Origin: a virus
Direction: 5' to 3' (one strand)
Length of the DNA stretch: 64,000 bases
Virus record (IMG/VR): IMGVR_UViG_3300036770_008166
Location: 32,001-96,000 of that record
The position numbers were made by a program, and so were the translations under genes. Below are positions 10,526 to 38,652 of the stretch, piece by piece. The notes below the pieces were generated by a model, which ran no database searches, had not been told where the DNA came from, and was given only the letters and a program-made list of their open reading frames with translations. Each line of letters starts with the position of its first letter. Position 1 is the first letter of the stretch.

Positions 10526-10777
10526 ATGAAGATCACTTTCCATACCTTTACCATGGGCGACGTGGAAGATCCTGACATCTATGCGGCCGAACCTATCTAT
10601 CGATGGCAACAGACTGAGCAGGGAACATGGGCGATGGAGCACGCGCATGATCTCACCTATTACACAGGAGCCGATCCTCACGGTTTTGGATATCTGATCA
10701 GCATCAGAGGCACTGTCAATGACCCCCGACGAGTCACGGAGTATTTCCTAAGATGGCCCAAGCAAGAAAAATCCTAG
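10526..10777 (+). CDS. small hypothetical phage protein
   Basis: 83-aa ORF preceded by extended -10 TGCTATACT (10511-10519). Confidence 0.7.
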   Translation: MKITFHTFTMGDVEDPDIYAAEPIYRWQQTEQGTWAMEHAHDLTYYTGADPHGFGYLISIRGTVNDPRRVTEYFLRWPKQEKS

Positions 10778-11742
10778 TCACAGGAGGTCTTGGCCTGATT
10801 GGACACAATGTAGTCCGGCGACTGCACGACCAAGGTCACGAAGTCATCGTGACAGATATCTGCACCAACTACGGCATCGTGCCGCAGAGCGAAATCGACT
10901 ATCTTGTCCGAGAACGCAGGCAAAGATTAGATCCTAACACGCGAGTTTATGACATAGACATCGCGGATCAGGTAGGCATGGACAACCTCATGCGCAGCCA
11001 TCGATTTGATACCGTGATACACATGGCCAGCTTTCCCCGGCAGAAAGTTGTGAACGCTGATCCCATGCGTGGCAGCCGCACCATGAGCGAAGGGCTACTG
11101 AATCTCCTAGAACTAAGCTCAAGGCATGGGGTAGACAGATTCGTGTACATCTCATCCAGCATGGTGTATGGCGACTTTGCGGATCAGATGCGCGAGGATG
11201 CTGTGTGCAGACCTCAAGGTCAATATGGCATCATGAAACTGGCAGGAGAGTGGTTGGTGCGTGACTACACCCGGCGAGGCAGTTTTGATCATGTCGTAAT
11301 TCGTCCCAGTGCTGTTTATGGTGAACTGGACGTGGAGGATCGCGTGATTTCTCGGTTTATGCTCACGGCCCTGCGTGGAGGGGTATTGAAAGTCAACGGC
11401 GCCACCGAAACCTTGGATTTTACCTATGTAGAGGACGCCGCTGATGGCATCGTGAGTGCTGCCCTGCTACCAGTAGCCCGCAACAAGACCTACAACATCA
11501 CCAAGAGTCATTCCTGGAGCCTGCTAGATGCTGCCCGGCTGGCAGTAAGTATAGCTGGTCAAGGCTCAGTAGAAGTAAGAGACAAGGATGCTGATTTCCC
11601 CAGTCGAGGAGCGCTCAACATTGATGCTGCACGACGAGACCTCGGGTTCAATCCCCGGGTAGACATCGAAGAAGGATTCCAAAGATATCATGACTGGTTC
11701 CGAGGTTCCACTTACTGGAAGCAGCAGTTGAAACAATCATGA
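10753..11742 (+). CDS. NAD-dependent nucleotide-sugar epimerase/dehydratase (extended SDR)
   Basis: TGGLGLIG, SSSMVYG, YGIMK (YxxxK), DFTYVED. Confidence 0.92.
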   Translation: MAQARKILVTGGLGLIGHNVVRRLHDQGHEVIVTDICTNYGIVPQSEIDYLVRERRQRLDPNTRVYDIDIADQVGMDNLMRSHRFDTVIHMASFPRQKVVNADPMRGSRTMSEGLLNLLELSSRHGVDRFVYISSSMVYGDFADQMREDAVCRPQGQYGIMKLAGEWLVRDYTRRGSFDHVVIRPSAVYGELDVEDRVISRFMLTALRGGVLKVNGATETLDFTYVEDAADGIVSAALLPVARNKTYNITKSHSWSLLDAARLAVSIAGQGSVEVRDKDADFPSRGALNIDAARRDLGFNPRVDIEEGFQRYHDWFRGSTYWKQQLKQS

Positions 11743-12845
11743 CGGGACTGACGATACCGTTTGTAGGTCTGACCAAGCAATACAACAATCTCCGCACCGA
11801 GATCCTGGATGTCACCGATGAGGTCTTGCGATCAGGATCTCTCATGGACGGCAACTTCACGGCCGAATTTGAAAACTGGTTGGCCAGGCGCAACAGTGTA
11901 AAATATGCTGTGACCTGCCACTCCGGTACCCAGGCCTTGGAAATCATCGCTCACTATTACGGCACACAACACACTATGCCTAACCCGCCCACAGTGCTCA
12001 TCCCCGCGGTTACCTATGTGGCCACCGCCAATGCGTTCATGCGCGCAGGCTGGTCGGTACATTTTGTTGATGTAGATGCTTTGGGTATTTTTGACATGCG
12101 GTCGATACCAGATATAAGTTATCAGGCCATGGTCTTGGTAGGACTATATGGTGCTGCCATCACGCACATCGGCGATACCAAGATCTGGCGACAGACAGTG
12201 CTACGTGATGGCCTGGTGATAGAGGACGCTGCACAGCACTGGCTCTCCAGCGGTGCCATCAGGATCGGCCAGGCCGCGGCCATCAGTTTCGATCCCATGA
12301 AGAATCTCGCGGCATATGGCAACGGCGGTGCTGTTGTGACCAATGATGCTGATCTTTATCGGTATGCCAAGGCCTGGCGCAACAACGGCAAACCCGACCA
12401 TCATCATGCTGGTACCAACAGCAGGATGAGCGAGATAGACTGTGCCGGGCTCTTGGTCAAAACCCGCCATATCGACGATTGGCAGCAGCGTCGAGCCAAG
12501 ATAGCGCAGTTCTGGATAGACAAGTTGCAGTCATCCACTGTACGCTGTCTTATTAATCGTGACAACTGGCACGACCATTGTTATCACAAGTTCGTGATTG
12601 ATGTGGAAGCCCGCGACATCCTTCAACGCAATCTGGCCATACGAGGCATAGAAACACGCGTGCATTACAGCCAACCCCTGCACGAAATAGATATCTATCG
12701 CCAGTGGCCAGGGCCTTCATTCCTTAGTTCTGCTTCGGCACTGTGTCGCCGGGTGCTAAGCCTGCCGATTTATCCTGAGCTCACTGATCTACAGGTAGAA
12801 TACATAGCAGATCAGGTACGAGACTGCGTGACCAGTTCAGGATGA
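11739..12845 (+). CDS. DegT/DnrJ/EryC1/StrS-family PLP-dependent sugar aminotransferase
   Basis: SGTQAL, IEDAAQH, SFDPMKNL (PLP lysine), GNGG, LSLPIYP. Confidence 0.92.
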   Translation: MTGLTIPFVGLTKQYNNLRTEILDVTDEVLRSGSLMDGNFTAEFENWLARRNSVKYAVTCHSGTQALEIIAHYYGTQHTMPNPPTVLIPAVTYVATANAFMRAGWSVHFVDVDALGIFDMRSIPDISYQAMVLVGLYGAAITHIGDTKIWRQTVLRDGLVIEDAAQHWLSSGAIRIGQAAAISFDPMKNLAAYGNGGAVVTNDADLYRYAKAWRNNGKPDHHHAGTNSRMSEIDCAGLLVKTRHIDDWQQRRAKIAQFWIDKLQSSTVRCLINRDNWHDHCYHKFVIDVEARDILQRNLAIRGIETRVHYSQPLHEIDIYRQWPGPSFLSSASALCRRVLSLPIYPELTDLQVEYIADQVRDCVTSSG

Positions 12846-15844
12846 ATCATCATGGCATATGCACTCAACCATGACCATTCGTAGCTCTTTTTTAATTCTG
12901 CGAAATCCCCGTCTACTTGATCGTAGTAGGCCAATGCATCTTGTGCGCCACAGGCGCTCCATGATGCGAAATTTCCTGCACCCTCAGAACACCAACGGCG
13001 GATACGATATTCGCTTTCCACGTCTGGCAAGCTGGCACGCAGCTTGAGTACTTCTCGGAAAGCTGTGCGCCATGTGGTCCAGGCATCCACATCGTAGCGA
13101 GCCACGCCTGACAGTATCGGCACCACTTCATGCGCATCATCTAGGGTAAAGTCTAGCCCGCGGCCAGGGTTTCTCAAGGTCAGTCGTCGGTTGTAGGCGA
13201 TCATGGCCTGGTGCCCGTACTCCAATTGATTCACAGGATTGTAGGCATGGAAGATGTAGTGTTTGGCCTGCTGCAGCCGATCTGGCTGCCATGCCCAGTC
13301 AAAATCGGCCATGACCTCCAGCTTGGCAAACACCGCAAAGAACCATGGCGTTTGGCTGGCATCAGCGGCAGCATGATAGGCAGCCACTCTGCCTTTGACT
13401 CCATCTACTCTTACACACCGATTTGGTTGCCCTTGCTTGTGATGCAGCAGCGCGCCCCAGTTCAGATCGGCATTGGCTTCCCCGTTGGATATGAATACTA
13501 TGTCCAAGGGCTCGCAGGCATTGTCGCCAAGGTGTGTTTTGTCGATCACAGCATAGTCATAGACCTGTTGTCGTATGCGACCTGTGACTTCTCTGGGCAC
13601 AATCACAGCACAGCTGCCTGGATCCAATGGAGTCACGGCCTTGACATCATCACGCCAGAGATTCACAGCGGGTATCCGAGCTGGTCGATCTTGCGTCGTA
13701 GTAAACAGCGTCAACGGCGCACGCAAAATAGCTGTTCGGATGGGCTCTACATGTGAATCTTCTTGATGTACCATCACTGGTATGGATCTGCGCGGCACAG
13801 ACACACTGACAAAATTCACATCGTACCATTCCAACAGTTTGCATTTGGCTGCTCGTTCTCGGAAAGTGGGCACATGCATGAAAAACGTATCGCCGAACTT
13901 TTGATCGTCCGAGGCAAATACATGCAGCATGCTAGCCTGCCATTGCTCAGGATACCATGTCCAATCAAATTTTGTGTAGTCACAGATACTGCTCACTATC
14001 CAGATCCATTCTGCATCAACTGTGGCAGCTACGCGACGCAGGGTGTCCAGATAGTTGTTCACATATCTCACACATTTTATCACGGGCACTGTTTTGACCA
14101 ATGCCTGTGCCAGTTCAGGCGCGTGTCCATCCAGATGATCCAACACTACCACAGGTGCCCGGCTGGCAACTACTTCTACTCGTACCTGCTCAACATACTT
14201 GCGTTCAGTGGCCCCTGGCACATGATATTCGGGCCCACCGGTTTTTTGATGTTGGCTACCAAACTCATAGATGAAAGGCTGCTCTGTGGCATCTGGATGC
14301 CAGGTCCAGTCAAAATCCGCTATTAGCGCGGCAAGATCTCCGGGCAATTGCCAGTACGGATCCTGCGAAGTTTTTCGGCATCTAAACGCCGATGCATATT
14401 TTACTTCTGTGGCTCTTGGCATATTGTACACTGCCCCGCCGGTCTTCTGCCACTGTGTACCAAACTGATAGATATAGGGCGGCGAACCTGGGTCAGGCCT
14501 CCAAGTGGTATCTACCGAATCCGGATCAATACCTTGGGGCACTGTCCAGGCAGCGGGATTTGGTAAAAGATTTGCTCGCACGTTTGCCACGTACTTGCGT
14601 TCAGTGGCTCCGGGCATCCGGTATTCCAGGGTGGGCCAGATTTCTGCCGGCCACCATTGATTACCGAACACATAGATATAGGGCGGATCTCCGGGATCGG
14701 GTTGCCACGAAGGATCCCAGACGCATGATTCTATAGGGTACCAATAATCATTGGGATTCCTAGTGAGCCTGGCCTGTGGCGAAGGCATGAACTTTCGCTC
14801 AGTGGCTCCGGGTACCCGGAATTCTACAGTGGGCATCTTTTCTGCTGGCCACCACTGATTTCCGAACACATAGATGTAAGGCGGATCTCCCGGATCTGGT
14901 TCCCAAGAAAAATCAAACTCACAATCTATCAGTACCTGAAACAAGGATGGATCAGATTGGCGCTGTGCTCGAGGAGCGGCAAGATATTTTGTTTGCGTGG
15001 CTCCGGGCACAGTGTACATGGCACTGATCCTTTTTTCAGCTGGCCACCACTGATTGCCAAACACATAGGTCATGGGTGGATCGCTGGGATCGGGCCGCCA
15101 ACGGCGCACAGGATCATCGGCCGCAAGATCGTCTAAGATTCGCATGCCTTGATCAGGCCGGGTACGAACAGAAAAATCTGTCGCATATTTTATTTGTGTA
15201 GCACCGGGCACATGATACTGTGCACCACCTGTGCGGTTCCATCCCCACTCTACCGGAAATTCATAGATATAGGGTGGTGCGACAGGATTAGGAACCCATG
15301 ATCTGTCGATGCTGTCTGGATCGATCCAATCTGGTATGTGCCACAGTGCAGGATCGCTGCGTGTGCGGTAAGTGACCAAATCGCTATGTTTGACTTGTGT
15401 GGCTCCCTCGACACGATAGACCACGCCACCGATGTTGTCCCAATGCCACGGTGACGCAAAATGCCACACATAGGGCGGGTCTGCTGGATCTGGATGCCAG
15501 GAGAAATCCACAGATTCTGGGTCCACATACGGAGGCACTTCCCATGCAGCAGGATCCGGCCTTCGTTGGATGGTGTTGGCATGATAGTGGGTATCAACAT
15601 AGCCTGCAGCCGGAACAAGATATATACCGGCATCTTTTTGATGCTGGCTGGCCCAGGCATGCCGTTGGGTGGCCTGCCATGGTGGTGGTTCCCAAAGCCA
15701 ATCCCAGTCAGTGAGATCCGCTAAGTAATGCACCCACCAAAAAAATCTAGTTCGAGCCCGTGACTGTGCATCCGTTATACTTTCAGCAGACTGTTCATGC
15801 AGACCTAACCGCGGTGATCGACCATGATAAAAAATATCAAACAT
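12812..15844 (-). CDS. 1010-aa protein with tandem W-x-P-D-P-x-D-P-P-Y repeats and degenerate GT-A-like domains
   Basis: Internal repeats visible in the translation; C-terminal ~230 aa align by eye with 35535-36461. Confidence 0.75.
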   Translation of the reverse strand: MFDIFYHGRSPRLGLHEQSAESITDAQSRARTRFFWWVHYLADLTDWDWLWEPPPWQATQRHAWASQHQKDAGIYLVPAAGYVDTHYHANTIQRRPDPAAWEVPPYVDPESVDFSWHPDPADPPYVWHFASPWHWDNIGGVVYRVEGATQVKHSDLVTYRTRSDPALWHIPDWIDPDSIDRSWVPNPVAPPYIYEFPVEWGWNRTGGAQYHVPGATQIKYATDFSVRTRPDQGMRILDDLAADDPVRRWRPDPSDPPMTYVFGNQWWPAEKRISAMYTVPGATQTKYLAAPRAQRQSDPSLFQVLIDCEFDFSWEPDPGDPPYIYVFGNQWWPAEKMPTVEFRVPGATERKFMPSPQARLTRNPNDYWYPIESCVWDPSWQPDPGDPPYIYVFGNQWWPAEIWPTLEYRMPGATERKYVANVRANLLPNPAAWTVPQGIDPDSVDTTWRPDPGSPPYIYQFGTQWQKTGGAVYNMPRATEVKYASAFRCRKTSQDPYWQLPGDLAALIADFDWTWHPDATEQPFIYEFGSQHQKTGGPEYHVPGATERKYVEQVRVEVVASRAPVVVLDHLDGHAPELAQALVKTVPVIKCVRYVNNYLDTLRRVAATVDAEWIWIVSSICDYTKFDWTWYPEQWQASMLHVFASDDQKFGDTFFMHVPTFRERAAKCKLLEWYDVNFVSVSVPRRSIPVMVHQEDSHVEPIRTAILRAPLTLFTTTQDRPARIPAVNLWRDDVKAVTPLDPGSCAVIVPREVTGRIRQQVYDYAVIDKTHLGDNACEPLDIVFISNGEANADLNWGALLHHKQGQPNRCVRVDGVKGRVAAYHAAADASQTPWFFAVFAKLEVMADFDWAWQPDRLQQAKHYIFHAYNPVNQLEYGHQAMIAYNRRLTLRNPGRGLDFTLDDAHEVVPILSGVARYDVDAWTTWRTAFREVLKLRASLPDVESEYRIRRWCSEGAGNFASWSACGAQDALAYYDQVDGDFAELKKSYEWSWLSAYAMMIHPELVTQSRT
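14190..15530 (-). repeat. seven coding tandem repeats of ~65 aa (D.SW.PDP.DPPYIY.FG.QW...Y.VPGAT..KY)
   Basis: Seven clear copies, plus degenerate copies on either side; boundaries approximate. Confidence 0.85.
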
Positions 15845-16937
15845 GATCAGGATAGACGAACTTTATAATCACACCTTCTGGCCTTGGATCGAAAAAAACT
15901 GCCCTGGTACCAGAGTATTTTTTTGTGACCCGTTCGGTTATACCCAACCAGAAAATCTTTTCAATCATGGCAGCGATCTCATCCAGGAAGCTGACTATGT
16001 TTTTTTCCATGATCAAGAACCTATCCAGATAGAAGCTCACCGTGCGTTGTTTGATGATGTGGTGCGCAGGAACATGGACATCCAGCCCGCACCTCAGGGT
16101 CGTGTGGTGGTGAGTGAAAAGGGAGATCATGTTGCTGAACTGTGCGATATTTACGGTTGGAAGTCCAGTTATTATTTTTTCCACGGATGGGCCTGTCTTG
16201 ATTGGTATCGCGGATATGACCGCACGTTCCTTTTTCCGCCGCCTGACAGTCGCCGCCGGCCCACACGCACTTTCATGAGTCCCAATCGCATCGTCGGAGG
16301 ACAGAGAGATCATAGGGTTCTTTTCATTTATCACTGTATCAAAAAAAATCTTTTGCAAAACAATATATCTGCTCCAAAAATCTGCCCACATGAAAACGTT
16401 CACATCAAAGATCTGGCTCTGCGTTATGTTAACACATATCCTGACATTGTGCAAGCACTCCAATCTGCCGAGCTACCTTGGTTATTTCCTGACGAAGTCA
16501 CACAGGAAATGACCAGCTGCTGGTTGGACAATTTTGATGTGGCCATGGACAGCATGATCTATGTGCCTACAGAAACTGTGTATTTTGGCAATCGCACTCA
16601 TCTCACTGAAAAAACTTTCAAGGCCATAGCATTGGGCATGCCATTCATTCTGATAGCGGCTGCTGGCAGCCTGGACTATCTCAAACACTATGGATTCCAG
16701 AGTTTTGGCACAGTTTGGGACGAAAGCTATGATCAAGAAACCAACGATCTACGACGTCTCGAGATGGTGACAGATCTTTTGCGTGACATAGAACAGCAGA
16801 GCGACCGAGAAAAACATCAGATCTGGCGCTATGCCATGCACGTGGCCCAGCACAACTGGAATCATTTTTATCATGGCGGTTTCGAACGGGTGCTCTGGCA
16901 GGAAATGACCAACATGCTGAGCGAGTTCAATGCTTAA
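15843..16937 (+). CDS. GT10-like putative glycosyltransferase, paralogue 2
   Basis: VPTETVY...LTEKTFKAI...PF...GFQSF...DESYD...HN. Also shares HDQEP and YFFHGWA.LDWYR with paralogue 1. Confidence 0.6.
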   Translation: MIRIDELYNHTFWPWIEKNCPGTRVFFCDPFGYTQPENLFNHGSDLIQEADYVFFHDQEPIQIEAHRALFDDVVRRNMDIQPAPQGRVVVSEKGDHVAELCDIYGWKSSYYFFHGWACLDWYRGYDRTFLFPPPDSRRRPTRTFMSPNRIVGGQRDHRVLFIYHCIKKNLLQNNISAPKICPHENVHIKDLALRYVNTYPDIVQALQSAELPWLFPDEVTQEMTSCWLDNFDVAMDSMIYVPTETVYFGNRTHLTEKTFKAIALGMPFILIAAAGSLDYLKHYGFQSFGTVWDESYDQETNDLRRLEMVTDLLRDIEQQSDREKHQIWRYAMHVAQHNWNHFYHGGFERVLWQEMTNMLSEFNA

Positions 16938-18117
16938 CTTGGTCACCGATTCCATCATCAAGGGTCGTATCTATCCTGCAGGAGCTAAATGGCAGGCACG
17001 ACCTTACACCCAAGCCTGGCGACAGTTTGGCAATCATTGGCCCTATACCACGCCATTGCGCATGCAGGAGTATTGCGAACAACACGGCGTGGCTTTGAAT
17101 ATTTTTTACCCCGAACAGGTATTGCCGTCAAACACCTTTTACGCTGTATGTCTGGGTTTTTTTGATTTCTCCATAGACTATGTGAATCTGCTGCCAAAAA
17201 ACATAATGGCATTGCTCCGATCCAGCCGGATCAAACTGTTGTTCATGTATCATGAAGGGGACAATCCTTCACAAATCAAACAAAGATTAGATGCTCTATG
17301 CCAACTTCATGACCTCCCCAATCGTTGTTATGTGTTTGTGAGCTCTAATTCATCCGCGGCACGTTTACCAGGGTTTGTGCATTTTGATGATTTTGAGCTC
17401 TGGTATTGGCAACGCAATCGTGATCAAGTGGCCACAGAGATACACCGCGGGGCAAGGCCATATGATTTCACCGTACTGTGTCGCGAACACAAATGGTGGA
17501 GGGCCACAGTGATGGCGGATCTCTGGCGACATCATCTACTGGATCGCAGCCTCTGGAGCTACTGCCATACACCAGACGACGATAATGATCATGACTGTCC
17601 TATCGAAATAGATCGCATATCTCAGCTGAGATACCATCGCGCAAAATTTTTAGAGATCTTGCCCAAATTTTGCGACAGTCTGACCGATCATCAAAGGAAC
17701 GATCATTCACAATCTCCTGAATCTTTGTTTTCCCAGTCTTATATGAATGTGATAATTGAGAGTCAGTTTGATGTCGACAACAGCAGCGGAGTTTTCCTTA
17801 CTGAAAAAACATTCAAACCCATCAAACACGGACAACCTTTTTTCATTGCTGGTGCTGTAGGCAGTTTGCAACAACTGCGTGCGTTGGGCTACAGGACGTT
17901 TGATTCCGTGCTAGACAATGCTTATGACGAAGAGCGTGATCATACCCAGCGGTGGTGCCTGCTGCTACAGGCTATCCAGCGTGCCTACAAAATTGGTCTA
18001 GATCGTATCTTTGCTGCCTGCCTGCCAGACATTGAACACAATCAACAGCTATTCTTGCAACACAAAAAAGACAGATTAAATACCGCGATACAACAGATCA
18101 ATGACCAATACTGTTAA
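16930..18117 (+). CDS. GT10-like putative glycosyltransferase, paralogue 3
   Basis: VIIESQF...LTEKTFKPI...PF...GYRTFD...YD...HN. Confidence 0.6.
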   Translation: MLNLVTDSIIKGRIYPAGAKWQARPYTQAWRQFGNHWPYTTPLRMQEYCEQHGVALNIFYPEQVLPSNTFYAVCLGFFDFSIDYVNLLPKNIMALLRSSRIKLLFMYHEGDNPSQIKQRLDALCQLHDLPNRCYVFVSSNSSAARLPGFVHFDDFELWYWQRNRDQVATEIHRGARPYDFTVLCREHKWWRATVMADLWRHHLLDRSLWSYCHTPDDDNDHDCPIEIDRISQLRYHRAKFLEILPKFCDSLTDHQRNDHSQSPESLFSQSYMNVIIESQFDVDNSSGVFLTEKTFKPIKHGQPFFIAGAVGSLQQLRALGYRTFDSVLDNAYDEERDHTQRWCLLLQAIQRAYKIGLDRIFAACLPDIEHNQQLFLQHKKDRLNTAIQQINDQYC

Positions 18118-30506: not shown

Positions 30507-31680
30507 AGGCTTTACCCATCTCTTGATTTATTAAAGCATTCCATGTTCGGTAGATTTGGTTAGGTATTTGTTTGCATATTTCATCCATTTTCAGACAATT
30601 GTTTGCAAATCTGTCTTTTTTTGCTTGCCACAATTTGTCAAGATCTGTGGAACCATCCAGCAAGTGCAAGTTATCATCCAACGCCTTCAATAACCTAACG
30701 CCCGGATCCTTGATTCGATCGTACTCATGATTGATCACATCATCAAACGTATCTATTCCGAGATCCCGCAAATATTGCACCGTCCCTGTGCAGTTAATAT
30801 GGATTAAAAAATTACATCCATAAACGGCCTGCAATTCTTTTTCCGTGACAAACAACCCCGGTTCACCAAACAGCGTGCCTGTCACTATTTCTAATCTGGT
30901 TTGCTGTCGGATCGGCGCTAAATGTTTTTCTCCGTTGATTCTAACGGCATCGGTCAATCGAATGTTGTCGAAGATTGCAGAATCCCCAAACGGTGGAAGT
31001 CGTGACCTGTTGAACGAATTTTGAATCAAACGCTGATACCCTTGATCTAGATATTCATAGACATCTCGGTCCCATGTGTATGTGAGAAAATTATATATGT
31101 GTTCGAATTGTTGGCATCTTTTTACGAAGACATCGCTGGCGGTAATAAAAGCCATACGGTCCAGTTGTCTGGCTAACAAATATGATAAAACTCCTACACG
31201 ATGCCACCAGATGTCGTTGTTGCACATCACATAGGAATATTGATTTGGCATTTTGTCGCAGGCGTACATAGGTACGGACTTTCTTGCAAGGCCATTCCAC
31301 CAATAAGGGCCTGCTACTACCTTGAGATTATTGACATCAACCATGGCCTGCGTGATGAGATGTTCCGTAAGCAGCAAAAAAGTTTTATCCGGATTCGCGC
31401 TACAGATCTTTTCAAGTTCCAAAAGACCGAGAGGTTTTGAATCCTGATACCAATTATATTCACGATCGATACACAATGCATCACTGGTGATAAGGATCAC
31501 GATTGGTTTGCAGAAAGCCTGTCTGCACAAATTCGGCCAGACATCTGTGCCTGGACCGTGATGCACAGCATAACACTCAGCTTTTGTCCAGTCTACCCCT
31601 GCCAGCAATAAGTCAATGTCCAATGAGTCCTCGATCGTGGACATCACCGCACTATCAATATAAGTGCAATCTATTTTCAT
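30499..31680 (-). CDS. GT10-like putative glycosyltransferase, paralogue 5 (divergent)
   Basis: IVTGTLF...VTEKELQAV...LRDLGIDTFDD...YD; the usual Glu in VxxET is replaced by Gly. Confidence 0.5.
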   Translation of the reverse strand: MKIDCTYIDSAVMSTIEDSLDIDLLLAGVDWTKAECYAVHHGPGTDVWPNLCRQAFCKPIVILITSDALCIDREYNWYQDSKPLGLLELEKICSANPDKTFLLLTEHLITQAMVDVNNLKVVAGPYWWNGLARKSVPMYACDKMPNQYSYVMCNNDIWWHRVGVLSYLLARQLDRMAFITASDVFVKRCQQFEHIYNFLTYTWDRDVYEYLDQGYQRLIQNSFNRSRLPPFGDSAIFDNIRLTDAVRINGEKHLAPIRQQTRLEIVTGTLFGEPGLFVTEKELQAVYGCNFLIHINCTGTVQYLRDLGIDTFDDVINHEYDRIKDPGVRLLKALDDNLHLLDGSTDLDKLWQAKKDRFANNCLKMDEICKQIPNQIYRTWNALINQEMGKAYV

Positions 31681-31681
31681 A

Positions 31682-32722
31682 TCAACAAAAAATCTCTCTT
31701 AGTTTTTCATACCTCAATTGCATAAAAATCTCATAATTATGCTCCAGCACAGATTGCATATCATTTAAAATGACACGACATTTTTCATGATTCCAATCTG
31801 CAATTTCATCCAAGAGCTCAACTATCATCTTGATCCTGGTTTGATCCGTCTGTCCATCATAATCTTCAGACCACCACCGACCAAAAGTCTGGAATCCCAA
31901 TTTTCGTAAATGATACAAATAACTACCTGTACCTAGCACTATGAAAGGACGACGCGCAATGATGCAGCGCCAGAGTTTTTCTGTGACTAAAAAATTATTG
32001 CCAGAAACATTGGGTTCAGTCACTATATCCACAAAAATATCGTAATAGAAATTGATCAGATTTAGATTGGCCGGTACCTGTATTGGATAATAACTACCGG
32101 GATGTTGGAAAATAGATTGGCTGGTGTCTGCATGCTTGAGAAAATCTAGATCGATGGTGCGAGGACAGTTTGTCAAAAACGCAGCGCATTCTGGTATTAT
32201 ATCACAATCACGTTGAAAAAGATCATCTAACCCCACATATCCGTTGCGGTTGTAGTTTTCTCTTTGCCTATCGTAATGATATGTCTGCAAGGTGCGATCT
32301 CGATGTCGCAGATCGAGATAGGTAGCAATCCATAATCGAGCCCAGGTGGTGCGACTCACGAAACAACCAAAATGTCGTGTAGGATTGTCGCCTGTGTCTA
32401 CACTGTTGGAGCGATGCCAATCCTGCACTTGTTGGACTTCATACCAGTAGTCTGGACATCGCACTACACGATAATCGGAATGAGCTTCTAGCATGTTGGC
32501 GGTTTGTATCGTCACGCGAGTCCGGTCAAAAGCCAGTCGGTCACAAAATTCGTCCAACATCCTGTAAAGGCCAAGTTGTTCTGCACAGCTGCCTTCGGGA
32601 TAAAAATCTATCACAACGTCACGATCCTCTTGGGCAGCTTGACACAATGTAGCAGTCAATCTATCTTTGCGATAAATTTTGCGGTCTTGTGTTTGAACAG
32701 ATATCGTCAATGGCTTATTCAT
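31682..32722 (-). CDS. GT10-like putative glycosyltransferase, paralogue 6
   Basis: IVTEP...VTEKLWRCI...PF...GFQTF...EDYD...HN. Confidence 0.6.
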   Translation of the reverse strand: MNKPLTISVQTQDRKIYRKDRLTATLCQAAQEDRDVVIDFYPEGSCAEQLGLYRMLDEFCDRLAFDRTRVTIQTANMLEAHSDYRVVRCPDYWYEVQQVQDWHRSNSVDTGDNPTRHFGCFVSRTTWARLWIATYLDLRHRDRTLQTYHYDRQRENYNRNGYVGLDDLFQRDCDIIPECAAFLTNCPRTIDLDFLKHADTSQSIFQHPGSYYPIQVPANLNLINFYYDIFVDIVTEPNVSGNNFLVTEKLWRCIIARRPFIVLGTGSYLYHLRKLGFQTFGRWWSEDYDGQTDQTRIKMIVELLDEIADWNHEKCRVILNDMQSVLEHNYEIFMQLRYEKLREIFC

Positions 32723-33570
32723 ATTTTGGTCTTTTGTCGTTTGACATTGGCCAGATGTTGAATTCGCGACGCGAGGTCTCGACTACTGGGACACTGTCTG
32801 CATACAGCATCAGGGCGACCGAAATTGCTCAGGAATTGATCTAGATCTTGATCACTGCAATCCGGAGCGATGCCATCTCTGAGAAAAGGCTGCCACAGTT
32901 CCGCATTGGGCATGCCAAATTTGATCAATATGTCTTTCAATAGTCCCACGGTGCTACATTTGTACACACGACCTTGATAGAGCAAAGGACAAGTTTGCTG
33001 GCAACATACCTCAAACGCGGCTTTGGGCTCGTTGTCATGTGGTCGCATGTTGATATAAGAACCTTGGAAAGTCTTCCAAAATACATCAGGCCTGCTGACC
33101 TGGAATCTGAATCTATTGCCAGTTTCGAACCTATCGATACCGTATTCTTTGACAGGCCGCCAGTTGAACCTGTTCATGATGTACTGGATGGTGTTTTCTA
33201 AGGCCTGGTCATTGACATGAACACCGATCTTGAACACTATGTTGCCCACATCTGCTGCCAAATCCACAATGTCGAGATTGCGTTCTAAAAGCAATCCATT
33301 GGTTGTGAAACGTATCTGAGCTGTTGGCATCAAAGACCGGATTCCCTGTATCCACTGTCGGATTTCGGGATTGAGCAAGGGTTCGCCACCCAAGATACCA
33401 AAATCTGGTATGTCTACTCTGACCAACCAGGCCTGTATCTCTTTCTGGGCTTGTGACCATGGAATCCATCCTTTGTGCGCCACATCGCTGTAGTTGGTAC
33501 AACCTGAGCATGCAAGATTACAAGACTGGGTAGCCATCATTTCTACAAATGGCAGCAAGGGTAGATTCAT
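32719..33570 (-). CDS. short radical SAM enzyme with C-terminal Cys-rich region
   Basis: CNLACSGC near the N-terminus, GGEP, TTNG; C-terminal CCQQTC...YKC...CRQC. Confidence 0.88.
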   Translation of the reverse strand: MNLPLLPFVEMMATQSCNLACSGCTNYSDVAHKGWIPWSQAQKEIQAWLVRVDIPDFGILGGEPLLNPEIRQWIQGIRSLMPTAQIRFTTNGLLLERNLDIVDLAADVGNIVFKIGVHVNDQALENTIQYIMNRFNWRPVKEYGIDRFETGNRFRFQVSRPDVFWKTFQGSYINMRPHDNEPKAAFEVCCQQTCPLLYQGRVYKCSTVGLLKDILIKFGMPNAELWQPFLRDGIAPDCSDQDLDQFLSNFGRPDAVCRQCPSSRDLASRIQHLANVKRQKTKI

Positions 33571-33577
33571 CTCGAGC

Positions 33578-34588
33578 TCAAAACAATTGTTGGGTCCATG
33601 CCGCCGGAGTTTTATTTGATCTGATTTCTATCGGCAAATGATACACAAAAGGTTTGCTCCCTTTTTTCTTGATATAATCTACCAACTTTATTAATGAATT
33701 ACGAATCGGCACAGTTTCCTTATAGCCAAAATACTGTCTAATTTTGTCGGAAGAACATACCGCATGTTTTACTTCCTGGGGGCGTGGTGCTACAAAAATG
33801 GGATCCAGGTCGATTCCGATAATTTCCGCCAACAGGGTTGCCAAGTCCATTATGGTGATAGGATCTCTGTCTGGACCAATGTTAAAAGTCTGGTTGATAG
33901 ACATTTCATCAGTCGCCAATCGCCCCAGACAATCTACGGCGTCTGCTATGTCAGTAAAACATCTGGTTTGCGATCCATCGCCATAGATTATGGGTTGGCG
34001 ACCTTGCAACATGAGATTGGTCATTATGCTGGCCACATTGCGGAAAGGATCATCATATTTTTGCCTGGGACCAATGATGTTGTGCGGTACTGCGATCACC
34101 AGATCAAGACCGTGTATGGTTGATAGATTTTGTAACAAAAGTTCAGAGCTGTATTTGGCTATACCATATGGATCTTGCGGACGACACATCATGTGTTCTT
34201 GAAAAGGCTGGCCATCAAAGTTGCCATATCTAGCCATGCTGGAACAATGCACGAACCTTGTCACTCCGGCCATGATCGCAGCAGTAAAAGCATTCACCGA
34301 AATTTGCACTGTATTTTCCACGATCAAACTAGGTGAAAACACAGACAATCCTTCGTACGCTGTACACGCAGTATGATAGACAATGTCACAGTCATGCATC
34401 AACTTATCGAGACCTGACAGAGATCTGAGATCGTGGTCATAAAATTCCACGTCATCGCTTACATTAGATCTATATCCGCCCAGCAGGTTATCACAACCGG
34501 TTACCTGATGTCCTTGTTGCAAAAAGTGATCCGCAAGATGACTGCCTACAAATCCGGCTACACCCGTAATAAAAATTTTCTTGGTCAT
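33578..34588 (-). CDS. NAD-dependent nucleotide-sugar epimerase/dehydratase (extended SDR)
   Basis: TGVAGFVG, SSMARYG, YGIAK, GDGSQTRCF. Confidence 0.92.
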   Translation of the reverse strand: MTKKIFITGVAGFVGSHLADHFLQQGHQVTGCDNLLGGYRSNVSDDVEFYDHDLRSLSGLDKLMHDCDIVYHTACTAYEGLSVFSPSLIVENTVQISVNAFTAAIMAGVTRFVHCSSMARYGNFDGQPFQEHMMCRPQDPYGIAKYSSELLLQNLSTIHGLDLVIAVPHNIIGPRQKYDDPFRNVASIMTNLMLQGRQPIIYGDGSQTRCFTDIADAVDCLGRLATDEMSINQTFNIGPDRDPITIMDLATLLAEIIGIDLDPIFVAPRPQEVKHAVCSSDKIRQYFGYKETVPIRNSLIKLVDYIKKKGSKPFVYHLPIEIRSNKTPAAWTQQLF

Positions 34589-35541
34589 GTACCTATTTCT
34601 AAGATCTGTAAGTTGTAGTCAAAGTTCTTGGCTACCATGTAGTTATGTTCCAACTGGAATCGCATGCACATATACAATTCTTCCAGTTCTTCACGAGATT
34701 TCGAGGCCAACCAATCTATCAAATTTAGGATTTTGATATATCTGTCGCCTTCTGCAAATCCATCATAGTCTTCGTTCCAAAATTCATTGAATGTATAAAA
34801 TCCCAACTGTCTTACATATTCTAGATAATTTTCCGAAGCCATCGCTATAAACGGTTTTTTCATCAGAATAGGTCGCACCAATTTTTCGGTAGGAAAAAAC
34901 GTTCGCCCCTTGATATTGGGTTCGCTAATGATGTCAACAAAAATGTTGGCATACAATTGTAAAAGACCTTTATCGTAGGTAAAGAGATGTCCGTGAGGTT
35001 GATAACCTAGATTTTTTGGTTCGTGCATGTCGATCCAGTTAGCTAGATAGGTCAAGCTGTCGGGGTCATATACAAACAATTTATTGACTTCGCATAGCGC
35101 ACGCTGATCTGGATCGCGGAAATCTACAGGAAATATTATTTCAGAATCGGCTCTATATTGATTGCACAGATAGGCTGCAATGCCTAATCTGTTGGCCGTT
35201 GGGCGGCCAAAAAAAGCTCCAAATATCTTGGTTTGATTCCATACACCCGACGTGTTGAGATCGTATTTTTCAATGTCCAGAAAAAATCTACCTACATTGA
35301 CTTTTGATATACCATATCGATCATGCGCTTCCAATTGATTATGTGTCATGATTTGCACTGAGGTGAAGTTGAATTTATCAAGTATGTCATAGAATCCTGA
35401 CGCTCTAAGACAGTGTGCTTCTGGGTTGACTATGATACAGATATCACTGCCTTGATTGTCATTCAAGAACGCAATCAGATCTGGGATGTTCCACAGCATA
35501 TCATTGGTTACTGTGACAGTGAATTCTTTGTGATCTACCAC
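34585..35541 (-). CDS. GT10-like putative glycosyltransferase, paralogue 7
   Basis: IISEP...PTEKLVRPI...PF...GFYTF...EDYD...HN; N-terminal PEA.C motif shared with paralogue 6. Confidence 0.6.
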   Translation of the reverse strand: MVDHKEFTVTVTNDMLWNIPDLIAFLNDNQGSDICIIVNPEAHCLRASGFYDILDKFNFTSVQIMTHNQLEAHDRYGISKVNVGRFFLDIEKYDLNTSGVWNQTKIFGAFFGRPTANRLGIAAYLCNQYRADSEIIFPVDFRDPDQRALCEVNKLFVYDPDSLTYLANWIDMHEPKNLGYQPHGHLFTYDKGLLQLYANIFVDIISEPNIKGRTFFPTEKLVRPILMKKPFIAMASENYLEYVRQLGFYTFNEFWNEDYDGFAEGDRYIKILNLIDWLASKSREELEELYMCMRFQLEHNYMVAKNFDYNLQILEIGT

Positions 35542-36461
35542 CCCTCTTGTCTCCGTATCACATCAATCTCTCTTACCATGATACCTTGATTTTGCCAGTT
35601 TGAGCGATAGTGGCGCTTGAAAAAAGCACTCTGTTCGGCCTCCAACATGGCTACTGGAAGGTCCAGCTGATCATGCAATTCGACGCCGATCTTGCCGGCC
35701 ATGACTCTGGGGTCCGACGTTTCCACCGTGGTCCATAGAGCCTGCAAAGAATCAAAATCCTGCACTTCACGATGATCCCAATTGGTCAACATGGTCATGT
35801 AGGTACCTTGACGAGCTCCGGCTATGGCCCAGATGCCATGCTCCACGTCAGTACCTACGTTATGCCATATGGTGAGATGATCAAGATTGCGTTGGTGCAC
35901 GCGGTCTCGGAATTCTGCTGCAGAAGGTCGTCGACCTTGGTCTAGGCACATCTTGACACCCTCTCGGAATCCGGCACGCCAGGCCTGGAAGGCGGATCCA
36001 TTGGGATAAGTCACTGACCAACAGTCGTGCATGGCCCAATAAAGCGGATCGAAACAGAATTCTACCTGTGTGGCATCCGATCCGTCCGTGTTTTCGTGGG
36101 TGGTCATGTTGGCAACAAAGGTACGAGTCCATGAGCTGAGGCCGCCATTGCCATACATGAGGCCATTGATGGTGTTGTAAGCTCTCCAACGCAGCACAGC
36201 AGATTCCCAGGTCACATCTGGAAACTCTAGCACCTGATTGAAAAACACCGGATCTGGCAGGTTGTCCCCATCAATCAAGATAAAACGCTCTGTGGCACTG
36301 GCCTCGCCGGCTGCCTTGTGTGCTGCATCTGATCCTTTGATGCCATGCACTCTCTGAGCCCAAGGTACCATGTTCCGGATGGTGATCCAGAACTCTTCAC
36401 ACTGAGGCTCATCATAGGTCAGATAGATACAGTCTAAATCTGCCACGTCAATCTTGGTCAT
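35535..36461 (-). CDS. putative GT-A fold glycosyltransferase
   Basis: YLTYDEP, GIKGSDAAHKAA, FILIDGDN (DxD), YGNGG, AWRAGFREGVKM. Confidence 0.6.
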   Translation of the reverse strand: MTKIDVADLDCIYLTYDEPQCEEFWITIRNMVPWAQRVHGIKGSDAAHKAAGEASATERFILIDGDNLPDPVFFNQVLEFPDVTWESAVLRWRAYNTINGLMYGNGGLSSWTRTFVANMTTHENTDGSDATQVEFCFDPLYWAMHDCWSVTYPNGSAFQAWRAGFREGVKMCLDQGRRPSAAEFRDRVHQRNLDHLTIWHNVGTDVEHGIWAIAGARQGTYMTMLTNWDHREVQDFDSLQALWTTVETSDPRVMAGKIGVELHDQLDLPVAMLEAEQSAFFKRHYRSNWQNQGIMVREIDVIRRQEGW

Positions 36462-36783
36462 AGGTTTTCATGCTCCACTTTTGTACGTCGCCATGCGATC
36501 TCACGATCATGACATCGTAAACATCACAACTTGTGCCCTGTTCGCTTGGCACCAGTTTGGCGGGTTGTAGCCAAGGATGATACTGGTGCAGCCGTCCGTC
36601 TCTTACTCGAATCCATTTGCTGCCACGTGCATAGGTGGCTTGATCGATGTCTATGTATGTACCAGGCAGATCCTCCATGCTGTAGCATATGAGTCGACCA
36701 CGGTCATCGTGATACAATCGATAAAACACAGGCTGAGCCGTGGGTGCTGCATGCAGGATCTGCCAAAATTCTTCGGGGGTCAT
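36448..36783 (-). CDS. hypothetical protein
   Basis: 111 aa from ATG 36783, which overlaps the upstream stop (ATGA). Confidence 0.7.
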   Translation of the reverse strand: MTPEEFWQILHAAPTAQPVFYRLYHDDRGRLICYSMEDLPGTYIDIDQATYARGSKWIRVRDGRLHQYHPWLQPAKLVPSEQGTSCDVYDVMIVRSHGDVQKWSMKTYDQD

Positions 36784-37544
36784 GGTAGCCAGTTCTTTTC
36801 GTGGTAGTGAAAAGCGCCCCATTGCACCACGGTATCAATGCGCAGTCGTCCGTTATCATGTTCCCATACCAGATTTTTTGACCAAGGTCCCACGGTACCA
36901 GCAGTGCGAGGTTTCATATGCACTATCTGCGGATACGAAGCAAAAGGCATGGTCACACGTTCCGGACCCATGACAGCTGCAGCTATGGCGTAGACCAGGT
37001 CGGTGCTGGCCTGATCTTCCGCGAATCGCAGGAGTTGTTTTACCTGTGGCCAAGTCTGGAATATCTGCCGTACCAGATCAAAAAATTCTTTGGCTGTGGC
37101 AGACAGGCGCCAATAGGTCACAGCATTGTACACATCTGGCAAGTGGTTTTCACGGAAACATCTACGATACGGAGAATTCGTTACTAGCTGATCGTGCCAA
37201 TCTCGGCATCCTGTGCTGATCACTAGATCACGATGCCGGAGCATGTTCCACCAATGATCTATGGCGCTGACAATCAGCATGTCAGCTTCCAGCTTGATGG
37301 TCTCGCGGAAAGGTGTGTGTCGGAATACAGCAGCATCATTGGCATAGGCCGTGGCGGCTGGATCTATCAGGCGCACATGATCAAATTCAGGCGCCGACAC
37401 TATCTGGTCTGTGATCAGACAGGTCCGGGCTGCTGGGTGCCACGATTTCAAACTGGCAAACAGGCGCTGTGCCATGGACACATAGTCCGCGGTGTCGGTG
37501 TTCACTGCCACACACACATATCCCTGCTCTTCAATGGGCCGCAA
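36780..37544 (-). CDS. GT8-like GT-A fold protein (ExD variant)
   Basis: TPFRETIKLEADML, H.K near the C-terminus; TTG start at 37544 after GGAGA SD. Confidence 0.6.
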   Translation of the reverse strand: MRPIEEQGYVCVAVNTDTADYVSMAQRLFASLKSWHPAARTCLITDQIVSAPEFDHVRLIDPAATAYANDAAVFRHTPFRETIKLEADMLIVSAIDHWWNMLRHRDLVISTGCRDWHDQLVTNSPYRRCFRENHLPDVYNAVTYWRLSATAKEFFDLVRQIFQTWPQVKQLLRFAEDQASTDLVYAIAAAVMGPERVTMPFASYPQIVHMKPRTAGTVGPWSKNLVWEHDNGRLRIDTVVQWGAFHYHEKNWLP

Positions 37545-38316
37545 CGATGTCTCCCAGCTGGCGCTTGCACATGGCATGGAAATCTTGATCCTGCAGCGAG
37601 CATCGGCGCGGACGGTCCGCTGGACCATATTGCACAATAAATTGGTCCTGATCTTGTTGCACGAGTTTGTGTTCAGGCAACACATTTATCATGGCACACA
37701 CTCGAGGCATCACAGGATCTACATGCCCGTTGACCAAAGGCAGTGCCATGCTGAGTGCATAATCATTTCGATACAGGGGCGAGTCTACGTGGAAAAGATC
37801 TCGATAGTGCTGCCAGTTATCGCGTATCATGCGCATGCTGTCAAATATGAATCGAGCTTGATTGTCACGATTGAACGCTACCACCGTGGCCCAGTATTGG
37901 GGGTGGTGATGCCGGCCAAATGTGTTCCAACTGTGAGAACCACCTGCAGCGATGGCATGTCGGAAACACCACAATCTGTCATGATCCATGATGACTCTCA
38001 GTGCATCGCTGGCGATAACATAGTCAGCATCCAACAACAGTGTACGATCATAAGGAGAAAGATCAAACGCATCACAGCGATCACGATTGTGCCAGGGCAC
38101 TGTATGACCTAGATCTTCGAACCATCTGTCACGATGGCCCGACGGCGCTGCTATCTTGATTACCCGATCAAATACTGCGTCATTGACATCTTGATCGGTA
38201 ATCAGCGTGGTAGGCAGATCCAAGTGCCTGAGGATGCGCTGTGCGCTCCAGGCCGCCATGGCCACATAGTCCAAGGCGCCGGCTCCTACAGCGAAAATCA
38301 CTGCGCCCTGTGTCAT
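37531..38316 (-). CDS. GT8-like GT-A fold glycosyltransferase
   Basis: SPYDRTLLLDADY (DxD), RNDYALS, HAMCK. Confidence 0.65.
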   Translation of the reverse strand: MTQGAVIFAVGAGALDYVAMAAWSAQRILRHLDLPTTLITDQDVNDAVFDRVIKIAAPSGHRDRWFEDLGHTVPWHNRDRCDAFDLSPYDRTLLLDADYVIASDALRVIMDHDRLWCFRHAIAAGGSHSWNTFGRHHHPQYWATVVAFNRDNQARFIFDSMRMIRDNWQHYRDLFHVDSPLYRNDYALSMALPLVNGHVDPVMPRVCAMINVLPEHKLVQQDQDQFIVQYGPADRPRRCSLQDQDFHAMCKRQLGDIVAAH

Positions 38317-38618
38317 CGTTGACTACGCAGGCCTTCTGATTCAGTCAACCAGGCTGCCAGTTGTTCTTGCCAGCGCTGTTGGCTCAGCTGCATAAGTTCT
38401 GTCACTGTCACACGCACAGGATTTTGGTATAGATCCAGCAGCACTGCCTCTGTATCAGGACAGGTCAGCAGCGTGGTCTGCAGTTCGGGTCCAGCTCGCC
38501 ACATACCTCCGGCATGGGCGAACAGCATCTTGGCTTCGTATTTTTCTCGCAGGATGCGTTTCTGGCTTTCATGATCGAATCGGCTGCGGATGTGTTGGGT
38601 CAAGGCATCAGTATCCAT
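38313..38618 (-). CDS. hypothetical protein, first gene of the minus-strand modification operon
   Basis: 101-aa ORF directly after a consensus promoter. Confidence 0.75.
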   Translation of the reverse strand: MDTDALTQHIRSRFDHESQKRILREKYEAKMLFAHAGGMWRAGPELQTTLLTCPDTEAVLLDLYQNPVRVTVTELMQLSQQRWQEQLAAWLTESEGLRSQR

Positions 38619-38623
38619 GCCTT

Positions 38624-38652
38624 ATTATATATGGTTTTTTTGGCTAGGTCAA
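38624..38652 (-). promoter_or_regulatory. sigma70-type promoter TTGACC-N17-TATAAT heading the 38618-19120 gene run
   Basis: -35 at 38652-38647, -10 at 38629-38624, 5 nt before the ATG. Confidence 0.75.

Follow-up and report, generated by a model that had tools for sequence, protein, structure and literature searches.

The locus examined here raises the question of what a large phage would build with an array of nucleotide-sugar, radical S-adenosylmethionine (SAM), and glycosyltransferase (GT)-like enzymes encoded beside its tail genes, and to which acceptor the product would be attached. The array lies at positions 10753-38618 of the window, by which we mean the whole 64,000-nucleotide stretch analyzed, bases 32001-96000 of a single 115,246-bp contig without terminal repeats (IMG/VR record IMGVR_UViG_3300036770_008166). 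We find that this interval is a conserved, autonomous biosynthetic island of a ~350-kb jumbo myovirus. Enzyme matches and a GT-B fold support an earlier proposal, made from the letters of the sequence and called here the sequence-only reading, that the phage encodes a multienzyme system for sugar tailoring and glycosyl transfer; this part of the explanation we regard as likely right, while our proposal that the product is a decorated glycan on a virion protein is tentative.

Results

Conservation and genomic setting of the island

CheckV rates the source contig as 33% complete, and the baseplate wedge protein at 57573-61253 is 34-41% identical to its counterparts in Phosso, SCTP-2, Atu_ph07, and Rak2-like jumbo myoviruses (350-490 kb); because of these relatives and the completeness estimate, we take the contig to be about one-third of a ~350-kb jumbo phage genome. 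One radical SAM protein (25431-26690) finds 214 IMG/VR contigs at 72-87% identity with lengths up to 353 kb, and the island is collinear in >200 uncultured phage contigs of 315-353 kb. Presence was counted over 54 related loci with full flanks (80 loci for the peptide described below). The carbamoyltransferase, a 377-aa protein, and all five paralogues of a radical SAM family with an N-terminal twitch-like domain (N-twitch) each occur in 54 of the 54, the amidinotransferase occurs in 40 (median identity 81%), and the DegT aminotransferase sits at the island edge in all five near-complete relatives. The whole region is collinear in two terminal-repeat-complete genomes, G001 and G004 (353 and 347 kb). 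The order in the complete relatives is MoxR, a von Willebrand factor A (VWA) protein, and ThyX, then a short-chain dehydrogenase/reductase (SDR), DegT, a 1010-aa protein, two genes of the GT-like family A defined below, the amidinotransferase, the carbamoyltransferase, the 377-aa protein, the radical SAM array, a variable slot, a module around the protein at 35535-36461, fiber genes, a giant protein, and the baseplate. Tailoring enzymes are 62-81% identical between relatives, versus 42-55% for the transferase-like genes. The clustering of these genes is far beyond chance, and the invariant core and two collinear genomes bear out the expectation that they co-occur across related large phages. 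The island accounts for ~7-8% of each phage genome, one of its proteins alone represents >8,000 clusters at 90% identity, and metagenomes are very rich in the ~350-kb clade that carries it.

Among cultured phages, only the Ralstonia jumbo phage RsoM2USA has the module, in a minimal version within ORF348-353 and ORF358: homologues of the proteins at 37531-38316 and 36780-37685, two homologues of 35535-36461, one N-twitch radical SAM enzyme, and an SDR. Its gene order is baseplate wedge, giant virion protein ORF361, SDR, fiber-like genes, and then the island homologues, and its virion proteins, ORF361 included, have been identified by mass spectrometry (MS) (PMC8504454). A DNA search of the cultured-phage collection with the fiber region gave zero matches. 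The "moraphage" lineage (PMC12619734) was considered as this clade and rejected as a different one. Neither Rfam nor tRNA scans of the window gave a match.

Enzymes predicted to make and decorate sugars

The nucleotide-sugar and group-transfer enzymes of the island are as follows.

10753-11742 (+), NAD-dependent epimerase/dehydratase of the SDR type (PF01370 2.6e-43, PF16363 1.1e-34), with an orthologue of 65% identity in the corresponding position of G001 and G004
11739-12845 (+), pyridoxal phosphate-dependent sugar aminotransferase of the DegT/DnrJ/EryC1 type (PF01041 8.7e-60)
18101-19129 (+), amidinotransferase of the AGAT/StrB1/SxtG/HsvA family (AGAT 5.2e-12, StrB1 8.2e-10, SxtG 7e-10)
19325-20158 (-), P-loop kinase fused to an HxGH nucleotidyltransferase (GxxGxGKT and HxGH motifs)
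20155-21639 (-), O-carbamoyltransferase of the NodU/CmcH/TobZ/NovN type (PF16861 8.3e-50, PF02543 1.7e-32)
33578-34588 (-), second SDR (PF01370 1.8e-46), in the variable slot

Pfam and PDB sequence matches confirm the two SDRs, the DegT enzyme, and the O-carbamoyltransferase named in the sequence-only reading. The carbamoyltransferase has both the Carbam_trans_N and Carbam_trans_C domains and matches NovN (1.3e-52), GdmN (6e-43), and TobZ (2e-31) in the PDB. The predicted amidinotransferase is likewise present, at 18101-19129: it matches five solved amidinotransferases with E values of 5e-12 to 3e-9, a Cys aligns with AGAT Cys407 and a His with His303, and the Asp position falls outside the aligned stretch. 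The gene at 21872-23005 was also considered as the amidinotransferase and was rejected in favor of 18101-19129.

The gene at 19325-20158 does carry the P-loop and HxGH motifs for which it had been called a kinase-nucleotidyltransferase fusion; its place in the pathway is doubtful. Its family matches are weak (APS_kinase 4e-5, CTP_transf_like 2e-3, nicotinamide mononucleotide [NMN] adenylyltransferase models 5e-6, a PDB NMN adenylyltransferase 0.009), and it occurs in 0 of the 54 related loci. From these matches it may be a strain-specific insert with a NadR-like function in NAD salvage, rather than a sugar-activating enzyme of the pathway.

A family of GT-B-like proteins

Seven paralogues, which we call family A, make up the largest set of transferase-like proteins.

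6052-7290 (-), seventh paralogue, outside the main island (BLASTP 7e-26 to 15843-16937)
15843-16937 (+), modeled member (AlphaFold 2, pLDDT 92, pTM 0.90)
16930-18117 (+), assigned by paralogue alignment, 49 of 54 loci
28004-29161 (-), embedded in the radical SAM array, by paralogue alignment, 50 of 54 loci
30499-31680 (-), in the variable slot
31682-32722 (-), in the variable slot
34585-35541 (-), in the variable slot

As had been described, six of the seven lie inside the interval and the seventh at 6052-7290, and they share invariant T-E-K, G, F, D, and R columns. Pfam, PHROG, and PDB sequence models give no meaningful match to any of them, permissive thresholds included, and their >3,900 metagenomic relatives, on contigs up to 353 kb, are all annotated "hypothetical." We modeled one paralogue with AlphaFold from a 41-sequence alignment and extended the result to the other six by paralogue alignment. 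The top 50 matches of the model among 48,161 PDB representatives are all GT-B glycosyltransferases (Z 7.5-11.2, 5-9% identity), including the lipopolysaccharide (LPS)-core enzymes WaaG and WaaB. T4 β-glucosyltransferase (BGT) scores Z 11.2-11.8, T4 α-glucosyltransferase (AGT) 10.5, and Helicobacter pylori fucosyltransferase (HpFucT, GT10) 10.2-11.2, over 235-289 aligned residues at 5-8% identity. On the evidence of this model, the predicted glycosyltransferase fold of the T-E-K proteins is confirmed as GT-B.

The narrower label "GT10-like" is unconfirmed, because the Z values tie between HpFucT and the two T4 enzymes and the Pfam GT10 model (PF00852) matches nothing in a six-frame search of the whole contig at E ≤ 10. 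A seven-paralogue profile searched against PDB sequences has no FucT among its matches, and the GT10 neighbor of family A in the Atlas scores only 0.81. FucT enzymes have a YxTEK donor-binding motif, to which the T-E-K columns may correspond. A search of 121 Bacteroidota genomes for GT10 genes to set against family A by profile found none at E ≤ 1e-20. Other viruses have the family A fold joined to an SDR epimerase, a methyltransferase, or a UDP-glucose dehydrogenase, and these fusions tie the family to nucleotide-sugar chemistry.

Radical SAM enzymes

Six radical SAM enzymes are encoded on the minus strand.

22932-24263 (-), N-twitch paralogue 1 (NF033640, 285.8 bits; CX3CX2C at residue 146 plus an N-terminal Cys cluster)
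24214-25434 (-), N-twitch paralogue 2 (346.7 bits)
25431-26690 (-), N-twitch paralogue 3 (392.1 bits)
26677-28017 (-), N-twitch paralogue 4 (297.2 bits)
29103-30506 (-), N-twitch paralogue 5 (306.8 bits; 34% identical to RsoM2USA ORF349)
32719-33570 (-), a different, shorter radical SAM enzyme of 283 aa (27.6 bits only, a nonmember)

The count of six therefore stands, as five members of NF033640 (curated cut-off 170 bits) and one other enzyme, all with the CX3CX2C motif. The five are mutual paralogues by BLASTP; their CX3CX2C lies at residues 123-146, and upstream of it are invariant Cys columns (C32, C50, C92, and C95) that form a four-Cys twitch-like domain. In keeping with this arrangement, the Pfam SPASM match lies N-terminal of the Radical_SAM match, and several NCBIfam models of SPASM/twitch peptide maturases match weakly. 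The idea that these enzymes are sugar tailors like BtrN and NeoN is not supported: they belong to an uncharacterized family whose bacterial members sit in an oxidative, nonsugar cluster.

NF033640 is rare in bacteria (4 of 401 Bacteroidota). On one Bacteroidota chromosome (G085:C2:1208500-1228400), two tandem N-twitch genes stand in an oxidative tailoring cluster with five PhyH-type dioxygenases, a WelO5-like halogenase, a methyltransferase, and a dehalogenase-like Fe-S protein. A single-protein scan of bacterial genome contigs gave one match, which is phage-like and binned in a Haliscomenobacter metagenome-assembled genome (MAG), NZ_JBBAKG01; its contigs C1 and C3, each with 5-6 N-twitch genes and the 33-aa peptide described below, resemble two jumbo-phage fragments and may represent contamination or a weak hint of the host. 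The 255-kb Vibrio phages K566 and K567 (OZ196521, OZ196593) have three loci each with distant (24% identity) N-twitch relatives. Full-text literature searches with the family name, the NF033640 accession, and "N-terminal twitch/SPASM" phrases returned zero papers, as did combinations of jumbo phage, radical SAM, and GT or of phage carbamoyltransferase, radical SAM, and DNA modification.

Candidate GT-A proteins, other conserved proteins, and variable slots

The remaining protein-coding features of the island, and its expanded variable slot, are listed here.

35535-36461 (-), 308-aa protein with an invariant, DxD-like LIDGDN motif; 52 of 54 loci at 73% identity, and 37% identical to RsoM2USA ORF350
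36780-37685 (-), GT-A-like candidate, paralogue of 37531-38316 (BLASTP 6e-7); phrog_1903 3.8e-8 from residue 54; homologue RsoM2USA ORF352
37531-38316 (-), GT-A-like candidate with an invariant LDADYVV (DxD) motif in 15 orthologues; RsoM2USA ORF353, 2e-25
12812-15844 (-), 1010-aa repeat protein whose C-terminal part is homologous to 35535-36461 (BLASTP 2.6e-5), without the DGD motif
21872-23005 (-), 377-aa conserved protein, 54 of 54 loci (AlphaFold 2 pLDDT 78, N-terminus disordered)
36448-36822 (-), 124-aa conserved protein, 44 of 54 loci, zero family matches
38313-38618 (-), 101-aa protein, first gene of the minus-strand unit, ~58% identity in relatives, zero family matches
30499-35541 (-), variable slot, expanded here to three family A genes, the 283-aa radical SAM enzyme, and the SDR at 33578-34588

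Three of these proteins had been read as GT-A enzymes. What stands of that assignment is the DxD motifs, an Atlas label, and fusion partners; Pfam, PHROG function, and PDB sequence searches yielded zero matches for all three. In 22 orthologues of 35535-36461 the residues D64-G-D66 are invariant, and its Atlas neighbor is labeled "GT 2-like" (0.99). The family comprises 1,356 clusters at 50% identity; in seven of the ten longer or fused forms scanned, the domain follows a GT1/GT28-type domain, and the two source-named fusions, both from Pseudomonadota MAGs, carry annotations of the glycosyltransferase type. Judged by motif and context, 35535-36461 is probably a GT-A-like transferase, and a GT-A fold is plausible for all three. 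Homologue searches with the 35535 and 37531 families were filled by close orthologues that carry no Pfam label, and hhalign left the two families unlinked.

The longest-ORF (open reading frame) starts of 36780-37685 and 21872-23005 overlap their upstream genes by 155 and 74 nt. Translated searches (tblastn) with the N-terminus of 36780-37685 encounter stop codons in relatives; judged by relatives and by model confidence, its true start is probably downstream of the annotated one, and that of the 377-aa protein probably ~17-20 codons downstream. For the 377-aa protein Foldseek gave zero matches, and a wide structural search only borderline ones (Z ~8), namely helical bundles and a cyclophilin-like barrel that bears a helical insert.

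The 1010-aa protein, described earlier as a repeat pseudo-GT, is partly confirmed as such by its DWxWxP units (four strict ones at residues 47, 511, 626, and 848, and at least four in total) and by the C-terminal segment related to 35535-36461; Pfam and PHROG yielded zero matches, and its orthologues in relatives are ~50% identical. Its start codon overlaps that of the divergent family A gene at 15843-16937 by 2 nt, which leaves zero intergenic promoter space, so that either one start is mis-set or the promoters lie within coding sequence.

Two slots of the island vary. Genes of the slot at 30499-35541 are present in 0 to 29 of the 54 loci, the slot measures 6-4352 nt in relatives, and the contents found there include FkbM and class I methyltransferases, an AMP-binding enzyme, extra N-twitch radical SAM genes, and extra family A genes.

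A 33-codon gene

The minus-strand block 19325-38618 is, as reported from the sequence, nearly gap-free: it begins 34 nt after the fiber gene and is interrupted only at 21640-21871. This 232-nt "gap" holds a gene that had been missed.

21774-21875 (-), 33-codon ORF that encodes a basic peptide, invariant in its C-terminal half (RYRKKLKELRKRDPFIYK), with a 4-nt overlap at the stop of the 377-aa gene

The peptide is present in 74 of the 80 loci, 65 times between the 377-aa gene and the carbamoyltransferase. Its last 18 residues are essentially invariant and its C-terminal ...DPFIYK is invariant; over codons 16-33, 73 loci differ by 662 synonymous versus 19 nonsynonymous changes. The peptide is under strong purifying selection and is the most conserved element of the island. 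It has no Pfam match and is absent from RsoM2USA and from the bacterial N-twitch loci. A DUF5989/SxtK-like identity, considered as a candidate, was dropped after Pfam gave zero matches.

A separate transcription unit beside the tail operon

Two features mark the boundary between the island and the tail genes.

38619-38652 (-), intergenic sigma70-type promoter TTGACC-N17-TATAAT (11/12 positions, the strongest match within 20 kb), whose end lies 5 nt upstream of the ATG
38653-41430 (-), two Ser/Thr-rich fiber-like proteins of 321 and 600 aa, outside the island (29.0% and 20.5% Ser+Thr; phrog_14394, virion structural protein, 5e-10), named in the sequence-only reading as candidate acceptors

In seven relatives this gap contains an intrinsic terminator, made up of a T-run and a GC stem that differs among them by compensatory changes, and then TGTAYAAT; the promoter after the terminator reads TTTACT-N17-TGTATAAT. 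TTGACC-type promoters also precede the MoxR and VWA genes. The motif TATAAATA lies upstream of 41430. T4-late-like (T/A)ATAAATA motifs stand 10-30 nt upstream of the fiber and baseplate genes at 39628-41430, 57573-61253, and 61303-61677, which suggests a T4-style late transcription program in this jumbo phage. Over the whole contig, TATAAATA and TGTAYAAT occur at chance level; because the motif counts are not enriched, the contrast between early and late promoters rests on position and conservation. The island adjoins the tail operon and yet is a separate unit, probably one that depends on host sigma70 by the look of its promoter. Of the claim that the system is fused to the tail module, adjacency stands and transcriptional fusion does not, given the promoter in the gap and, in relatives, the terminator as well.

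The adjacency extends to other virion genes, since GT genes adjoin virion genes in the same order in G001, G004, and RsoM2USA. Between the fiber genes and the baseplate wedge lies a 5113-aa ORF at 42232-57573 (-), with a net charge of about -279. Parts of it match RsoM2USA ORF361 (2541 aa, a virion protein by MS, PMC8504454), and its orthologues in G001 and G004 are 39-58% identical.

On the other side of the island, a MoxR-type AAA ATPase at 3954-5045 (+) and a DUF2201 metallopeptidase/VWA protein at 7318-8595 (+) lie just upstream of ThyX and the island and are conserved there in relatives at 69-83% identity, and a strong intrinsic terminator (8614-8643, +; 13-bp stem plus T-run) directly follows the VWA gene. 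Farther upstream, an MFS/sugar-transporter-like protein at 1382-2626 (+) has nine hydrophobic segments (PF00083 8e-30). It has no homologue in the 80-kb regions around the island in G001 and G004 and is not conserved at this position.

Discussion

What the island may make

We propose that the SDR and DegT enzymes would make nucleoside diphosphate-amino-deoxy sugars, whose amino and hydroxyl groups the amidino- and carbamoyltransferases, together with the methyl- and acyltransferases of relatives, would decorate. The radical SAM enzymes, whose role in sugar chemistry we infer, would perform C-H chemistry on the sugars, such as epimerization, dehydration, oxidation, or C-methylation, and the GT-B and GT-A-like proteins would build an oligosaccharide onto an acceptor that is accessible in the cytoplasm. 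The likeliest acceptor would be a phage virion protein of the adjacent fiber or giant-protein module, and with a conserved core and variable slots, the final glycan would come to differ from one phage lineage to another. The island proteins show no credible membrane span and are thus soluble enzymes only, which leaves no self-contained lipid-linked export pathway. Taken as a whole, this statement of a decorated glycan on a virion protein falls somewhat below an even chance in our judgment, and the virion-protein acceptor, considered by itself, is a little more doubtful again.

Several observations weigh against this proposal, in which both the product and the acceptor are inferred by us. No sugar-activating nucleotidyltransferase is conserved in the island across the 54 loci, and a sugar model assigns no role to the 377-aa core protein or to the invariant peptide. 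The bacterial N-twitch locus is oxidative and nonsugar, so the radical SAM family is not sugar-specific. The three GT-A-like proteins are candidates by motif and context, and the best structural neighbors of family A include both T4 DNA glucosyltransferases. Finally, the conserved terminator and sigma70-type promoter, set against the late motifs of the fiber and baseplate genes, suggest that the island is expressed before the virion genes.

The last of these points fits an early role at the host surface. Soluble transferases could modify lipid-linked intermediates of the host (LPS core, undecaprenyl pyrophosphate-linked O-units, capsule precursors) from the cytoplasmic side, host flippases and ligases would export the altered glycan, and an early surface change would block superinfection by competing phages. 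The presence of WaaG and WaaB, soluble GT-B enzymes of the LPS core, among the fold matches agrees with such remodeling, as do the variable slots, which fit surface diversification, and the same function has been proposed for GTs in the fiber-side hypervariable cluster of pelagimyophages (PMC7029224). We nevertheless consider it unlikely. The island encodes no membrane protein of any kind, and it lacks an initiating phosphoglycosyltransferase, a flippase, a polymerase, and a ligase. Its enzymes would need to mesh with the machinery of hosts throughout a very broad clade of phages, seroconversion benefits a temperate phage more than a jumbo phage that is strictly lytic, and remodeling would not account for the conserved fiber-side placement in two distant lineages. 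Early or middle timing would also suit hypermodification of DNA, in which the GT-B family would glycosylate phage bases and the tailoring enzymes would decorate the DNA-linked sugars, shielding the genome against restriction and other nucleic acid-targeting defenses. Here the T4 β- and α-glucosyltransferases as top neighbors of family A and the position of ThyX directly upstream of the island in all relatives speak in favor, and there is a report of viral GTs attaching a variety of glycans to DNA (Pyle 2024, as cited in PMC12619734). That GT10 and many other GT-B enzymes reach equal Z-scores, at 5-9% identity, takes much from the first point, and the fusions of family A involve sugar-nucleotide rather than DNA enzymes. 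The sequence-only reading had preferred a protein or surface acceptor to DNA because of the ~10 transferases; although these and five radical SAM enzymes exceed any described DNA glycan pathway, the number of transferases is a weak argument given the glycans reported on DNA, and a better one is that five relatives (91-100% complete) lack a ThyA-family (PF00303) dCMP/dUMP hydroxymethylase and TGT/DpdA, with PF00303 found in 10 of 14 genomes as a control. A search of the same relatives for Tet/JBP also found none, with a silent control that makes this result uninformative. The membrane-span and ThyA/TGT negatives weaken both the envelope and the DNA explanations, and we judge the latter very improbable.

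A product derived from the peptide would give the most conserved element of the island a central place. The 33-residue peptide would be the scaffold or precursor for the five radical SAM enzymes, in the manner of a ribosomally synthesized and posttranslationally modified peptide (RiPP) such as mycofactocin or pyrroloquinoline quinone. These enzymes would rebuild the ...DPFIYK tail, and glycosylation, carbamoylation, and amidination would follow to yield a glycosylated peptide or a peptide-derived small molecule. Mycofactocin offers the logic, being a radical-SAM-processed peptide tail that is then oligoglycosylated by a GT. Beyond the conservation of the 33-residue peptide (74 of 80 loci, 662 versus 19 changes, the invariant tail), this explanation draws on SPASM/twitch enzymes being typically peptide maturases, with several such NCBIfam models matching weakly, on the natural-product-like rather than sugar-related setting of the bacterial N-twitch genes, and on the AMP-binding enzyme in the slots of relatives. 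If true, jumbo phages throughout the clade would produce a glycosylated molecule of this kind while infecting their hosts, by the first virus-encoded RiPP-type pathway of such complexity, and NF033640 would have its first function. We think it improbable all the same: Pfam and NCBIfam detect no RiPP recognition element (RRE)/PqqD-like domain or peptidase in the island proteins (the sensitivity of such profile models for RREs being limited), and the peptide is absent where an N-twitch enzyme occurs without the carbamoyltransferase, as in RsoM2USA and the bacterial loci. Translational coupling links it with the 377-aa gene and the carbamoyltransferase, not with the radical SAM genes, and as a highly basic helix it has more the character of a regulatory or partner peptide; short uncharacterized ORFs flank the carbamoyltransferase SxtI too (PMC2885083).

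The decorated glycan on a virion protein that we weakly favor, or whatever product is eventually established, would once solved assign chemistry to two families, one of uncharacterized radical SAM enzymes and one, large and unannotated, of viral GTs, would tell whether virions, the host surface, DNA, or a peptide receives sugars bearing guanidino or carbamoyl groups, and would explain a conserved fiber-side feature of aquatic myophages. The question is experimentally tractable because the cultured phage RsoM2USA carries the minimal version.

Comparison with known systems

Pelagimyophages and cyanomyophages carry GT and radical SAM cassettes among their fiber genes, and the host recognition cluster or hyperplastic region of aquatic T4-like myophages is the closest description of the island in the literature (PMC7029224). 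Both are large, variable fiber-side blocks within the structural region with GTs, sugar-nucleotide enzymes, and radical SAM cassettes, known from genomics only. The island differs in its strict core of five N-twitch radical SAM enzymes, carbamoyltransferase, 377-aa protein, peptide, and amidinotransferase, with only the slots varying; in having its own promoter; and in its phages, which are Rak2/Atu_ph07-like and of 315-353 kb rather than T4-likes of 150-250 kb. Its enzyme set is not described in that paper.

The proteins that characterize the island, namely the N-twitch radical SAM enzymes, family A, the 35535 family, the 377-aa protein, and the peptide, are without a described function. All five N-twitch paralogues share with NF033640 the N-terminal four-Cys domain followed by CX3CX2C, at 286-392 bits; that family has no characterized member, and its bacterial copies stand in a dioxygenase/halogenase cluster, whereas here five stand among sugar enzymes. 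Family A resembles T4 AGT and BGT (GT72 and GT63) and HpFucT (GT10) as a compact GT-B of ~350 aa; the Pfam models of those enzymes miss it, and the T4 enzymes that provide the acceptor base are absent in the relatives. As in the island, the O-carbamoyltransferase SxtI is tightly linked to small uncharacterized ORFs, although SxtJ and SxtK have no sequence-family link to the 33-aa peptide or the 377-aa protein, and the likeness is one of analogy only.

Mycobacteriophage virions are glycosylated (Freeman 2023, Cell Host Microbe, as cited in PMC12619734), and there too, by the cited account, phage GTs adjoin structural genes and the acceptor is a virion protein. As summarized there, that system uses few GTs and host sugars, without radical SAM, carbamoyl, or amidino chemistry; our island lies outside the late operon, and its part in virion glycosylation is putative. 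In its chemistry the island resembles aminoglycoside and aminocoumarin tailoring, for the StrB1, TobZ/NovN, and DegT families occur together in it. It departs from those pathways in that Pfam scans detect no aminocyclitol-forming enzyme, in that its radical SAM enzymes carry the twitch domain N-terminally and belong to a different family from BtrN, in its ~10 transferases, which point to an oligosaccharide rather than a pseudo-trisaccharide, and in its viral context.

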